Shown: piece after piece, positions 2,270 through 5,360 of the stretch | How the letters are laid out: each line of letters opens with the position of its first letter | How positions within the stretch are numbered: the first letter of the stretch is position 1 | Translations under genes and position numbers: made by a program | IMG/VR virus record: IMGVR_UViG_3300029577_000149 | Direction: 5' to 3' (one strand) | Origin: a virus | Taxonomy: Duplodnaviria; Heunggongvirae; Uroviricota; Caudoviricetes | DNA length: 7,089 nt | The notes under the pieces: generated by a model | Told to the model about the DNA's origin: nothing | Seen by the model: only the letters and a program-made list of their open reading frames with translations | Databases searched by the model: none

Positions 2270-2314
2270 TTCACACCTCCTCAAGTTATCAGTTACTTGT
2301 TGATGGGGACCAGA

Positions 2315-2327
2315 TTGTCAAAGAGCG
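2315..2327 (-). promoter_or_regulatory. boxA-like motif CGCTCTTTGACAA in the leader between predicted pL and the first leftward gene
   Basis: Minus-strand reading of 2315-2327. Compared from memory with lambda nut boxA (CGCTCTTA...) and rrn boxA (GCTCTTTAACAA). No convincing boxB hairpin follows it. Confidence 0.3.
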
Positions 2328-2436
2328 AAGCGTCCTTTAGAGCGCTTTTTTGTTGCTAACGAATCATCCTGGACTTCATATGCCCCAGGCGGCTACTTCG
2401 TGGGCGTCCTGCCTGTTCGTTGTTTCGCTTGGGTAC

Positions 2437-2464
2437 ATTATGTATCTCAAAGGTACATTGTCAA
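2437..2464 (-). promoter_or_regulatory. Candidate pL with overlapping OL half-site repeats
   Basis: Minus strand reads TTGACA (plus 2459-2464), 16-bp spacer, CATAAT (plus 2437-2442). TGTAT-N7-GTACA (plus 2441-2457) lies in the spacer and a weaker TGTTT-N7-GTACA at 2421-2437, matching the operator consensus found between cI and cro. Confidence 0.45.
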
Positions 2465-2503: not shown

Positions 2504-3178
2504 TTAGGCTTTGATTTTGTATCTTCTTGGTTTTCCTGAGAAAATCACTGTACCAATTATAGAGCAATTACCGTTGATCTTAATGTAAGGCTCAGGCCAG
2601 TTTGGGTTTAACGCTTTGAGATAACGCTGTGTCCCATCTTCTATCAACCTTTTGAAGGTGGTTTCACCTGTATCGTGCATCAATGCAATAACGTCGTCAC
2701 CGTGGCAGGCAGGTACTTCAGGATCGACAAAAATCATGTCTCCCGGGCGGTACTCATCAATCATTGAATCACCTATCACCCGCAAGATATAAGTCATTTC
2801 CCCACAGGGTACAGGGCAGGGATACGTTTCTGCTGTGCTCAAATCAACCTCAGAATATCCAACTTCTTTCCATGCTCCGGCCTGTACCCATGATATGACA
2901 GGGACTAATGTGATTTGTTTATTAGTGATTGAAACATCAGGTTTTTTTGTGATGTTCGTTGTCTGGTGTTCTTGATCGAGCCATCCGACAGGCAGGTCGA
3001 AACATTTTTCGATGTGTCGTGCCATGCTGTCACCGATATTTTTAGTAGCACCATCTCCCATAAACCTGCTGGTCTGGGTTGGCTCGCGATCAATCATAGT
3101 GGCAAAGGAAGAATTCCCGCCAACACCATCTCTCAGTTTTCTGGCGTTAGACCGCCGGATGTCATGGATTGTTTTCAT
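2504..3178 (-). CDS. cI: CI-like prophage repressor with C-terminal S24 (LexA-type) autopeptidase domain, 224 aa
   Basis: ORF-track 2504..3178 (-). C-terminal half carries the S24 hallmarks: candidate Ala-Gly cleavage site (VQAGAW), Ser nucleophile in GDSM, and Lys in TFKRL, alignable by eye to lambda CI and LexA C-terminal domains. Divergent from a Cro-like gene across an operator-bearing intergenic region. Confidence 0.85.
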   Translation of the reverse strand: MKTIHDIRRSNARKLRDGVGGNSSFATMIDREPTQTSRFMGDGATKNIGDSMARHIEKCFDLPVGWLDQEHQTTNITKKPDVSITNKQITLVPVISWVQAGAWKEVGYSEVDLSTAETYPCPVPCGEMTYILRVIGDSMIDEYRPGDMIFVDPEVPACHGDDVIALMHDTGETTFKRLIEDGTQRYLKALNPNWPEPYIKINGNCSIIGTVIFSGKPRRYKIKA

Positions 3179-3268: not shown

Positions 3269-3469
3269 ATGAAAGCGTATTGGGACTCTTTAACCAAAGA
3301 ACAGCAGGGCGAGTTGGCCGGAAAAGTTGGCTCAACATCTGGCTACTTACGGCTGGTTTTCAATGGCTATAAAAAAGCCAGTTTTGTGCTGGCTAAAAAA
3401 CTTGAGCAATGCACGTCAGGTGCAATTACGAAATCTGACTTAAGACCGGATATCTATCCGAAAGATTAG
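3269..3469 (+). CDS. cro: Cro-like HTH regulator (YdaS / Cro-CI family), 66 aa
   Basis: ATG at 3269-3271 inside ORF-track frame 2966..3469, preceded by GGAGGT (3255-3260). The stretch of that ORF upstream of 3269 overlaps cI antisense and is not coding. Translation MKAYWDSLTKEQQGELAGKVGSTSGYLRLVFNGYKKASFVLAKKLEQCTSGAITKSDLRPDIYPKD fits a small HTH regulator; the RPDI-type C-terminus matches my memory of YdaS-like proteins. Confidence 0.75.
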   Translation: MKAYWDSLTKEQQGELAGKVGSTSGYLRLVFNGYKKASFVLAKKLEQCTSGAITKSDLRPDIYPKD

Positions 3470-3500: not shown

Positions 3501-4074
3501 ATGAGGCTAATCGTGGGTAAGCATCACTGGAAAATAGAAAAACAGCCTGAGTGGTACGTGAAAGCTGTCAGAAAAACTATCGCGGCGTTGCCGGGTGGTT
3601 ACGCNNNNNNNNNNNNNNNNNNNNNNNNATGTAACAGAAAACGCTTTATTCAACCGCCTTCGTGCAGATGGCGATCAGATTTTCCCGCTGGGATGGGCAA
3701 TGGTTTTACAGCGTGCTGGTGGCACTCACTTCATTGCTGATGCTGTGGCGCAGTCTGCAAATGGCGTCTTTGTGTCTCTTCCTGACGTCGAGGATGTGGA
3801 CAACGCCGATATTAACCAGCGTCTGCTGGAAGTCATTGAACAGATCGGCAGTTATTCAAAACAGATTCGTTCAGCAATCGAAGACGGTGTAGTGGAACCG
3901 CATGAGAAGACAGCAATTAACGACGAGCTGTATCTCTCAATTTCGAAGCTGCAGGAGCATGCAGCACTTGTCTACAAAATTTTTTGCATTTCAGAAAGTA
4001 ATGACGCCCGCGAGTGTGCAGCTCCGGGCGTCGTGGCGTCGATTGCTTCTGGTTGTGGAGAAACTAACGCATGA
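3501..4074 (+). CDS. YdaT-like (CII-position) regulatory protein, interrupted by a 24-N gap
   Basis: ORF-track 3501..3740 (frame 0, before the gap) and 3595..4074 (frame 1, after the gap) are most simply one gene whose frame across the gap is unknowable. Sits directly after cro as in Rac/CP-933P ydaS-ydaT. Start uncertain: ATG 3501 has no Shine-Dalgarno; GTG 3513 has GAGG at 3503-3506. Family from memory. Confidence 0.5.
3605..3628. other. Run of 24 N (assembly gap or masked bases)
   Basis: Literal n characters at 3605-3628. Confidence 0.95.
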
Positions 4075-4429: not shown

Positions 4430-5360
4430 ATTAACCGGCTATGTATGGGATGGTTGCGCTGCATCAGGCATGAAGTTATCCAGCGTGGCAATTATGGCCC
4501 GCCTGGCTGATTTCAGTAATGACGAAGGTGTGTGCTGGCCATCAATTGAAACCATTGCCCGTCAGATTGGCGCGGGGATGAGTACCGTCAGAACGGCTAT
4601 CGCACGGCTGGAAGCAGAAGGCTGGTTAACGCGTAAGGCGCGTCGCCAGGGTAACCGCAATGCGTCGAATGTTTATCAGCTTAACGTTGCGAAGCTTCAG
4701 GCAGCGGCATTTTCTCAACTGTCAGATTCTGACCCGTCAAAATCTGACGCATCAAAATCTGACCCGTCAAAATTTGATGCGTCGAAATCTGGCAAAAAAG
4801 CGGGTTTTCACCCGTCAGAATCTGGCGGGGATCCGTCAGTAAAATCAAAACATGATCCGTCAGATAAAAAACCTTCTCGTCCGGACGCTTCGCAACCGGA
4901 CACGCAGACGGCTGAACAGGATTTTTTAACTCGCCATCCTAATGCGGTTGTATTCAGCCCTAAAAAGCGCCAGTGGGGGACGCAGGATGATTTGACCTGC
5001 GCACAGTGGCTCTGGAAAAAAATCATCGCCCTGTACGAGCAGGCTGCCGAATGTGACGGCGAGGTGGTTCGTCCCAAAGAACCGAACTGGACAGCCTGGG
5101 CAAACGAAATTCGCCTGATGTGTGTACAGGATGGGCGTACTCACAAACAAATCTGCGAGATGTACAGCCGCGTCAGCCGCGATCCGTTCTGGTGCCGTAA
5201 CGTGCTCAGCCCGTCGAAGCTGCGGGAAAAATGGGATGAGCTTTCCCTGCGCTTATCGCCGTCCGTCAGCACGTACACCGAAAAACGCGAGGACCCGTAC
5301 TTCAAAGCCAGTTACGACAACGTGGACTACAGCCAGATCCCGGCAGGATTCAGAGGGTGA
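4419..5360 (+). CDS. Phage replication initiation protein (lambda O-like architecture), 313 aa
   Basis: ORF-track 4419..5360 (+), AGAGG Shine-Dalgarno at 4407-4411. N-terminal winged-helix-like segment (WPSIETIARQIGAGMSTVRTAIARLEAEGWL), a central low-complexity repeat linker (DPSKSDASKSDPSKFDASKS) encoded by the iterons, and a Trp/Cys-rich C-terminal domain. Confidence 0.75.
   Translation: MSTKLTGYVWDGCAASGMKLSSVAIMARLADFSNDEGVCWPSIETIARQIGAGMSTVRTAIARLEAEGWLTRKARRQGNRNASNVYQLNVAKLQAAAFSQLSDSDPSKSDASKSDPSKFDASKSGKKAGFHPSESGGDPSVKSKHDPSDKKPSRPDASQPDTQTAEQDFLTRHPNAVVFSPKKRQWGTQDDLTCAQWLWKKIIALYEQAAECDGEVVRPKEPNWTAWANEIRLMCVQDGRTHKQICEMYSRVSRDPFWCRNVLSPSKLREKWDELSLRLSPSVSTYTEKREDPYFKASYDNVDYSQIPAGFRG
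4729..4788 (+). repeat. Four tandem 15-bp iterons inside the replication gene; candidate origin of replication
   Basis: CTGACCCGTCAAAAT (4729-4743), CTGACGCATCAAAAT (4744-4758), CTGACCCGTCAAAAT (4759-4773), TTGATGCGTCGAAAT (4774-4788). Further CCGTCAG copies at 4812, 4833 and 4857, then an A/T-rich tract at about 4840-4872. Same layout as ori-lambda within gene O. Confidence 0.6.

Follow-up and report, generated by a model that had tools for sequence, protein, structure and literature searches.

The rrn-type boxA/Nus complex is formed on the leaders and spacers of rRNA operons, on the 5′ untranslated region (UTR) of suhB, and on the leaders of clustered regularly interspaced short palindromic repeats (CRISPR) in Salmonella, and Nus factors have been found to be able to block Rho without the phage protein N (PMC5725501; PMC7665894). 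The nut site in the pL leader of phage lambda combines a boxA with an N-type boxB, a hairpin with a conserved GNRA-like pentaloop located 3′ of boxA. The put RNAs of HK022 (putL and putR) and of its relatives HK639, HK75, and phiEt88 are structured elements of about 65–70 nucleotides (nt) with two hairpins, putL standing right after pL; to our knowledge, RNA-only processive antitermination is known from essentially this one phage family, and the leftward early gene expression in many N-less lambdoid prophages is largely unstudied. Another small RNA of phage leaders is the c4 antisense RNA of phages P1 and P7, a leader-embedded, processed regulatory RNA that is widespread in enterobacterial prophages. 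Here, we consider the leader of the leftward early promoter pL in a 7089-nt stretch of viral DNA (IMG/VR record IMGVR_UViG_3300029577_000149; below, the window is this whole stretch), which represents the immunity and early region of a lambdoid SfIV/e14-type prophage. Positions 1240–2520 are 98.3% identical to Shigella phage SfIV, and the immunity region is the same as in the e14 prophage of Escherichia coli K-12. The leader bears a conserved structured RNA (hereafter, the leader RNA) of an apparently undescribed family, followed by a hairpin and an rrn-type boxA.

Structure of the Leader RNA

The pL promoter is located at 2437–2464 (−), where the −35 element TTGACA (2464–2459) is separated by 16 nt from the −10 element CATAAT (2442–2437), with 11 of 12 matches to the consensus, and transcription is predicted to start near 2430. 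The promoter is overlapped by an operator-like 19-bp GTAC-type palindrome ATGTACCTTTGAGATACAT (2440–2458) that resembles those at oR, and K-12 e14 keeps the same promoter and operator. The original prediction, made from the sequence of this locus, had placed pL and several other elements in this region, and all of them are present there. When the leader was compared by sensitive BLAST, the widest conservation was found not at boxA but within about 68 nt at 2356–2424, just 3′ of the start site. The conserved RNA, 62–73 nt long, spans about +6 to +78 of the predicted pL transcript and is recognized by the covariance model R1 at 2353–2425 (−) with 93.9 bits (E = 1.4e-30) as a single copy in the window; its core structure occupies 2359–2420 (−).

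The structure was derived from an ungapped 73-column alignment of 13 copies from diverse phages. The closing helix P1 is formed by the 5′ strand ACGAA (2416–2420, −) and the 3′ strand UUCGU (2359–2363, −), i.e., by alignment columns 6–10 with 63–67. Four of its five pairs show compensatory changes, so that such different versions as CGAA/UUCG, CCACC/GGUGG, CAUC/GAUG, and GGAAC/GUUCC occur, and in larger sets P1 is 96.6–98.3% paired. Next comes a near-invariant 23-nt core GGCAGGACGCCCACGAAGUAGCC (2391–2413, −), whose ends can make a 3-bp helix P2 (2411–2413 with 2391–2393), one pair of which shows G-C to G-U changes. Helix P3 unites CCUGG (2385–2389, −) with CCAGG (2368–2372, −), columns 37–41 with 54–58; all five pairs bear compensatory changes, and five or more versions are met. 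The P3 loop (2373–2384, −) contains a conserved GGCAUAYGAA, and a conserved AUGA (2364–2367, −) joins P3 to P1. The core is identical in 133 of 216 unique copies, the remainder carrying single substitutions or small insertions, and it is still near-invariant among copies retrieved by an anchor outside the core.

In the 13-copy alignment, 95.3% of the cells are paired versus 24–48% after a shift of the partners by one to three columns; compensatory changes are seen in 9 of the 13 pairs, and the observed score was reached by none of 500 shuffles. The pairing has been replicated on 62 distinct IMG/VR copies (96.3%) and, with genomes taken one per species, on 63 distinct rows (96.6%); across all sets, 95–97% of the cells are paired versus 19–53% in the slid controls. 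The G-U pairs are compatible with the pL-sense strand alone. The leader RNA family almost certainly exists. The short mutually exclusive stems earlier noticed here, which looked like a weak and ambiguous fold, thus have to be reinterpreted: CCTGG (2368–2372) and CCAGG (2385–2389) covary and represent helix P3 of a strongly conserved RNA, while GCCTG (2411–2415) as the alternative partner finds no support because its columns vary without compensation. A small open reading frame (ORF) within the leader RNA was also considered and rejected, as conservation does not extend to its ATG, which lies in the P3 loop and is lost in many copies (CAUACG).

Distribution of the Leader RNA

In 13 annotated phages, the leader RNA is on the strand of the repressor gene, 100–120 nt beyond that gene. 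Its carriers include SfII, SfV, ST64B, Citrobacter phiNP, Pantoea AH07, Yersinia YeP1-3, and Pectobacterium ZF40, as well as mEp237, SPN3UB, Klebsiella prophages, and the T5-like Providencia phage PSTCR5; hence, lambdoid phages of several morphotypes are represented along with a T5-like one. Full-length R1 matches of 60–96 bits were obtained at 63 IMG/VR loci, and hundreds of Enterobacterales prophages have the RNA next to an early promoter. Of 5426 complete E. coli genomes, 1844 (34%) contain it, e14 of K-12 included, and no feature is annotated beneath it. Among the matches listed, full-length ones come from at least 59 species genomes, of which 57 belong to Enterobacterales (Xenorhabdus, Photorhabdus, Yersinia, Serratia, Pantoea, Klebsiella, Enterobacter, Citrobacter, Kosakonia, and others); of the remaining two, one is a Pseudomonas genome and one is labelled as Chryseobacterium. 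Each phage genome carries a single copy, e.g., one in the entire SfIV genome and one in e14. Matches to 21 nt of the core in Alpha- and Betaproteobacteria, Gordonia, and an archaeon were dismissed as chance, since they cover the core only (23–27 bits); most of those sampled coincide with a protein-coding gene that, on the opposite strand, encodes the motif CYFVGFLP.

A search of Rfam 15 with the whole window, and with 2290–2440 alone, gave no match over 2353–2425 at E up to 10. Nor was any description of this RNA found in the searchable literature when looked for by its core sequence (which retrieved unrelated primer matches only), as a put-like RNA, by e14/ymfJ, or among Nus targets, although an earlier description is possible. 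The leader RNA is, therefore, a new family as judged against Rfam 15, from which it is absent, and apparently an undescribed one.

The leader RNA is nearly always found 3′ of a sigma-70 promoter, while the operators differ among the phages and the immunity regions are mosaic. A crude promoter scan revealed a usable promoter in 57 of 89 contexts, and in 35 of these the −10 hexamer ends 13–16 nt before P1. The sequence 3′ of the RNA is not constant either and falls into at least 27 unrelated modules; in many contexts, e.g., in e14, a ribosome-binding site directly follows the leader RNA without any further signal.

Comparison with put, c4, and the Lambda Leader

The closest analog of the leader RNA is put, which it resembles as a structured RNA of about 70 nt with two hairpins placed directly after pL, without an evident dedicated protein partner and mostly in N-less phages. 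In one lineage, it stands upstream of a Nun-like gene (phrog_5632; 37% identity to HK022 Nun over 91 aligned residues), as putL does in HK022, and the sequence in the window even has CAGGAUGA in common with put. That the leader RNA might be a divergent member of the HK022 put family is, nevertheless, highly improbable. It possesses the closing helix P1, which put lacks; it occurs in a single copy, with no counterpart at pR; it coexists with N/nutL in some phages; and an effect on RNA polymerase is, in its case, only a candidate. None of the phages of the put family (HK022, HK75, O276, HK639, phiEt88, CobraSix, and S9-5) carries it, the two BLAST families being disjoint. The covariance models are reciprocally negative: R1 found no match on five put phage loci, and R2, which was built from six put sequences and gives 53–98 bits on true puts, found none in the window or in 20 loci of the leader RNA family. 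In alignment, the put blocks CGAACGGC and GGCGGG..CAGGAUGA..CGGCAAUG are not shared. Homology based on the common CGAAC..GGC and CAGGAUGA was rejected, since CGAAC belongs to the covarying P1, while CAGGAUGA is unconserved and stands in another structural context. By both models, the leader RNA is not a put family member; a put-like RNA, one of three options originally offered for leftward read-through, holds as an analogy of position and size but not as family membership.

A riboswitch, which the invariant junction and core might suggest, is just as improbable. Since the downstream sequence is represented by 27 unrelated modules, often by just a ribosome-binding site, there is no riboswitch-like expression platform, nor is there a terminator that would define a separate small-RNA gene.

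Like c4, the leader RNA is a small structured RNA within the leader of a phage early operon; it differs in having no Rfam C4 match and no complementary target downstream in the window, where a search with the core yielded only one site with three mismatches, which is at chance level. Mimicry of rRNA or complementarity to it was rejected as well, since only 10-nt chance matches to the rrnH operon were found.

In its first 33 nt (AUCAGCAGGACGCACUGACCACCAUGAAGGUGA, then boxA; 782–740, −), the lambda pL transcript has the 9-mer GCAGGACGC of the invariant core, and the lambda leader also has a CCACC-AUGA-GGUG arrangement like P1 and the joining region of some family members. It was rejected as a member of the family because R1 gives it no score, and the likeness may be a remnant or chance.

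boxA and the Adjacent Hairpin

Downstream of the leader RNA, a compact module is formed by an A-run (2346–2351, −), the hairpin GCGCUC-UAAA-GGACGC (2330–2345, −), and the boxA CGCUCUUUGACAA (2315–2327, −), noticed earlier as the boxA-like motif CGCTCTTTGACAA at 2327–2315. In relatives, it consists of the A-run, a hairpin GCGYCC-loop-GGACGC, two or three bases, and boxA, directly 3′ of which the module ends and the sequences diverge. The relatives keep the hairpin stem with a C·A mismatch, and the loop varies (UAAA, UACA, CGCU, GAUU, and others). Since the loop is unconserved and the hairpin precedes boxA, the module resembles the boxB–boxA order of rrn leaders rather than an N-type boxB, in line with the earlier statement that this leader has no clear boxB. 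As compared with lambda nut, it has the pL-leader position and boxA in common; the differences are the absence of an N gene from the window and the hairpin, which stands 5′ of boxA and has a variable loop instead of the conserved GNRA-like pentaloop.

The boxA 11-mer of the window, GCTCTTTGACA, matches the gamma-proteobacterial consensus GYTCTTTAANA (PMC5725501) at 10 of 11 positions, with the mismatch at position 8 (A to G). The G at this position is the residue of Aquifex, and a purine change there was judged tolerable in structural work on the NusB–NusE–BoxA complex (PMC3177189). SfIV and most relatives with the same leader module (SfIV and at least 30 relatives) bear GCTCTTTAACAATCTGG or GCTCTTTAAAAATC, both perfect consensus matches. 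In the K-12 rrnH operon, which was read directly, boxA is TGCTCTTTAACAATTTATC in the leader and TGCTCTTTAAAAATCTGG in the 16S–23S spacer, the leader carrying TGCTCTTTAACAATTTATCAG 3′ of a hairpin and the spacer TTGCTCTTTAAAAATCTGGATC. The boxA of the relatives is near-identical to both, with the ATCTGG flank included, and GCTCTTTAACAATCTGG nearly matches rrnH TGCTCTTTAACAA and TGCTCTTTAAAAATCTGG. Further common features with the rrn system are the hairpin just 5′ of boxA, as boxB in rrn leaders, the lack of N, and the long untranslated stretch that follows; the differences are that it belongs to the early leader of a phage and that the window copy has C at position 1, which is also the case in lambda, and G for A at consensus position 8.

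The motif is retained on the transcribed strand of orthologous leaders while the flanks diverge. Within 200 nt downstream of the leader RNA, the boxA 9-mer GCTCTTTAA is found in 36 of 216 unique related contexts and on the opposite strand in 0 of 216. By its sequence and strand bias, the boxA-like motif is most probably a genuine rrn-type boxA.

At least five arrangements of boxA after the leader RNA can be distinguished, and in none of them is it on the opposite strand. The first is the hairpin–boxA module of the window; in the second, this module is placed after another conserved module; the third is a bare boxA in several Xenorhabdus loci; in the fourth, boxA stands 8 nt after the leader RNA of the T5-like phage; and the fifth is a canonical nutL (boxA and GCGCUGAAAAAGCGC) followed by N-like genes (phrog_271) in loci of the Xenorhabdus/Photorhabdus type.

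Some of these loci deserve a description of their own. The additional module, UAACGCGCAGCAGGU..AACGUUCCGCYRGCC.GGCG, follows the leader RNA in Gifsy-like and Klebsiella prophages (loci L010–L013 and L015, about 2555–2610); it contains a small covarying hairpin and may precede the leader RNA (L033) or the hairpin–boxA module (L147 and L205). In the lytic T5-like PSTCR5 (2501–2590), a core variant with GGCAAGGAAAGCCC stands 8 nt before a perfect boxA. Of two matches in the related vB_PreS_PR1, one lies under an annotated repeat_region; if this is the terminal repeat, as we take it, the site would be pre-early DNA by analogy with T5. The IMG/VR contig L094 has N-like and Nun-like ORFs both 3′ of the leader RNA (447 and 736 nt downstream); the C-terminus of the latter, VVNHAHQRNPKKKW, is nearly that of HK022 Nun, and the contig has no put RNA. 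Finally, in the published SfIV genome (28387–28459), P3 is weakened by several substitutions, which affect its loop, its 3′ strand, and the joining region (GGCAUAUAAAGUCUAGGGUGA); SfIV combines a perfect boxA with a weakened P3, and the prophage in the window shows the opposite pattern.

Read in reverse, the boxA-adjacent hairpin is a real intrinsic terminator (2327–2348 and a T-run, +), as had been suspected from a plus-strand hairpin with a T-run. One may ask whether the U-rich flank of a bidirectional terminator merely happens to look like boxA, so that there is no antitermination and pL transcription either ends after the first gene of the operon, encoding 68 amino acids (aa), or continues unaided. 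Such a view would be consistent with the mismatch in the window boxA and with the small number of strong sense terminators downstream, as well as with the fact that the hairpin is a good terminator on the plus strand only. It is, however, unlikely because of the conservation: boxA is perfect in SfIV and at least 30 relatives, where it marks the 3′ edge of a conserved module with diverging flanks, and it recurs after the leader RNA in unrelated arrangements without the hairpin, with a strand asymmetry of 36 to 0. Moreover, both SfIV and SfV have xis and int further downstream in this orientation. Among the three options originally considered (a put-like RNA, boxA-only antitermination, or none), boxA-only antitermination has the best direct support.

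Absence of an N-like Protein

The first gene of the pL operon is the 68-aa ORF at 2063–2269 (−) with the ATG at 2269 and the Shine–Dalgarno sequence GAGGAGG at 2276–2282, which is partly within a local hairpin (2282–2299). The protein contains two arginines and no arginine-rich motif. Its sole PHROG match is phrog_1744, whose function is unassigned; searches of Pfam and NCBIfam revealed no N-family match, and BLASTP against lambda N gave zero alignments, so the homology search proposed together with the original prediction has disclosed no N-like arginine-rich-motif protein. The protein has 54 database homologues, every one a hypothetical protein of Escherichia/Shigella. The other ORFs of the window were screened for N likeness, and none is N-like, although the same methods do pick up N-like genes in other loci of the leader RNA family. 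As far as homology searches can tell, the 68-aa protein is not N-like, and the earlier view that no N homolog is encoded next to pL stands. An N-type boxB with a conserved pentaloop 3′ of boxA is also absent from the window leader, in which the sole conserved hairpin lies 5′.

Could the leader RNA be a nut-like site for a phage antiterminator that has escaped recognition and is encoded elsewhere in the genome? An invariant core in an irregular hairpin is typical of protein-binding RNA, and several proteins of the window have only a generic regulator annotation. On the other hand, there is no conserved neighbor gene across the 27 downstream modules and mosaic immunity regions, and the homologues of the first gene are limited to Escherichia/Shigella while the RNA spans the order. 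When 2.5 kb on either side were compared, no protein proved common to the T5-like and lambdoid loci, which favors a host partner over a phage one. A dedicated phage protein is, therefore, very unlikely.

Leftward Operon and Possible Role of the Leader

Between the stop codon of the 68-aa gene (2063) and the start of the yfdP-like gene (1239), the pL transcript runs for about 820 nt without an annotated sense gene; about 435 nt of it are antisense to a convergent gene, and about 415 nt are non-coding. C exceeds G in a stretch at 1767–1690. Inside the leftward operon, at 1301–1324 (−), there is a terminator-like hairpin with a U-rich tail, the homologous site of which is annotated in SfV as a putative rho-independent terminator. 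Transcripts from pL must cross it to reach the yfdP/yfdQ-like genes and, in SfIV, also xis and int, which are located downstream in the same orientation in both SfIV and SfV. Such RNA, with a C-over-G segment, a terminator-like hairpin, and a long stretch free of annotated sense genes, is of the kind protected by boxA complexes.

In the gap of 415 nt before the yfdP-like gene, which pL transcripts traverse, the prophage small RNA STnc100 gives an Rfam match below threshold (1395–1514, −; 35.6 bits at a gathering score of 47, E = 4.9e-5). The hairpin at 1301–1324 lies about 70 nt beyond it, and the segment is kept as far as the Salmonella phage ST64B.

Taken together, the sequence data lead us to prefer, tentatively, an RNA-only control of elongation, in which boxA and the Nus factors would shield the transcript from Rho and the leader RNA would contribute in cis. 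The first part of the leader (about +6 to +78) would fold into a three-helix RNA, with P1 closing it, P2 as an irregular hairpin holding the invariant core, and P3 bearing the conserved loop; the second part (about +86 to +116) would provide a hairpin and then the rrn-type boxA. As in the leaders of rRNA and CRISPR, boxA would first recruit host NusB–S10, to be followed by NusA, NusG, and SuhB, and the elongation complex would become Rho-resistant over the approximately 820 nt that have no annotated sense gene. The leader RNA would act in cis without a phage protein, either on the elongation complex itself or on a host factor bound to it, and it may promote read-through, suppress pausing, or help the complex to assemble. 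Its location in the elongation-control stretch of early leaders, mostly in N-less phages, fits a cis role on the elongation complex, while the clean covariation and the invariant core imply that it must bind something conserved. Here, Nus binding and any effect on termination are what we infer, and the function of the leader RNA is the most speculative part of the proposal.

A number of observations weigh against RNA-only control of elongation. A crude scan of the downstream region found 63 terminator-like hairpins in the sense and 196 in the antisense orientation, i.e., no sense enrichment. The minimum-energy fold of the single leader sequence is no better than that of shuffles (z = −0.15) and favors a non-conserved stem. 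The window boxA itself departs from the consensus at one position, and, being situated 46 nt before the start codon, it may instead repress translation, as at suhB (PMC5725501). About 80% of the contexts have no recognizable boxA, so the leader RNA and boxA need not cooperate. A phmmer search with N and Nun as queries, chosen because a scan of the downstream ORFs for arginine-rich motifs was too noisy, revealed genes for N or Nun-like proteins within 3 kb in 10 of 177 contexts; the coexistence with N/nutL indicates that the leader RNA is not simply a substitute for N and may act outside termination. Finally, unlike nutR and putR, a second copy is not found in the rightward operon of the window, of the whole SfIV genome, or of the other loci.

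It is possible, if somewhat doubtful, that elongation is controlled by boxA alone and the leader RNA plays another role, as a 5′ stabilizer or processing signal of early mRNA, as a target of some RNA-binding protein of the host, or as a decoy or anti-defence RNA that acts in trans and is the first to be made upon infection. Its coexistence with N/nutL in some phages implies that it is not redundant with antitermination; it usually begins within about 10 nt of the predicted 5′ end and in many contexts is directly followed by a ribosome-binding site; it is present in the probable terminal-repeat region of a lytic T5-like phage; and the invariant core points to one conserved host partner. On the other hand, the absence of a terminator or an obvious processing site 3′ of the RNA speaks against an independent small RNA gene, a simple stabilizing hairpin needs no 23 invariant bases, and the RNA is not significantly complementary to rRNA or to any other part of the window. 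The recurrent adjacency to boxA/nutL would also be left unaccounted for.

If the leader RNA does act in cis on elongation, as we tentatively prefer, a broader and rather doubtful proposal would be that it represents a second class of cis-acting, protein-independent RNAs that modify the host elongation complex, structurally unrelated to put and serving immediate-early transcription in a large share of the temperate phages of Enterobacterales and in a lytic T5-like phage, in some cases jointly with boxA/Nus or N. In its most likely role, it would extend RNA-mediated early antitermination by a new variant, and an action on RNA polymerase or Nus factors would widen the textbook mechanism; should it do something else, it would still be a widespread phage RNA that has apparently escaped description so far. 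The N-independent rrn-type boxA in a phage leader would be a natural addition to the short list of non-ribosomal Nus targets. The leader RNA is very common and present in such model objects as K-12 (e14) and the Salmonella phage ST64B, and it can be directly tested in K-12 after SOS induction of e14.

Other Features of the Window

The leftward operon includes the yfdP-like gene at 877–1239 (−) and the DUF2303/yfdQ-like gene at 1–811 (−). Directly upstream of pL, the transcript of the S24-type cI repressor gene (2504–3178, −) ends at an intrinsic terminator (2473–2492, −). On the other side of cI, the cro-like gene (3269–3469, +) is followed by a YmfL/CII-like gene, part of which is hidden by 24 Ns at 3605–3628; the gap between them, 43 nt only, is without a nutR- or putR-like element. 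The window further encodes an O-like replication gene, an ANR-type activator, a LexA-N-like repressor, RusA, and a KilA-N/Bro-type regulator. Inside the O-like gene, at 4720–4794, iteron-like direct and inverted repeats (TCAAAATCTGAC units) probably represent the origin, and these repeats are responsible for a spurious mir-5880 match in Rfam.

The convergent gene mentioned above encodes a 144-aa protein of the ECs1072 family (1657–2091, +) and overlaps the 68-aa gene by 29 nt (2063–2091). As the next plus-strand terminator is that at 2327–2348, the transcript of the 144-aa gene would be antisense to the entire 68-aa gene and to boxA and would end just before the conserved leader RNA.

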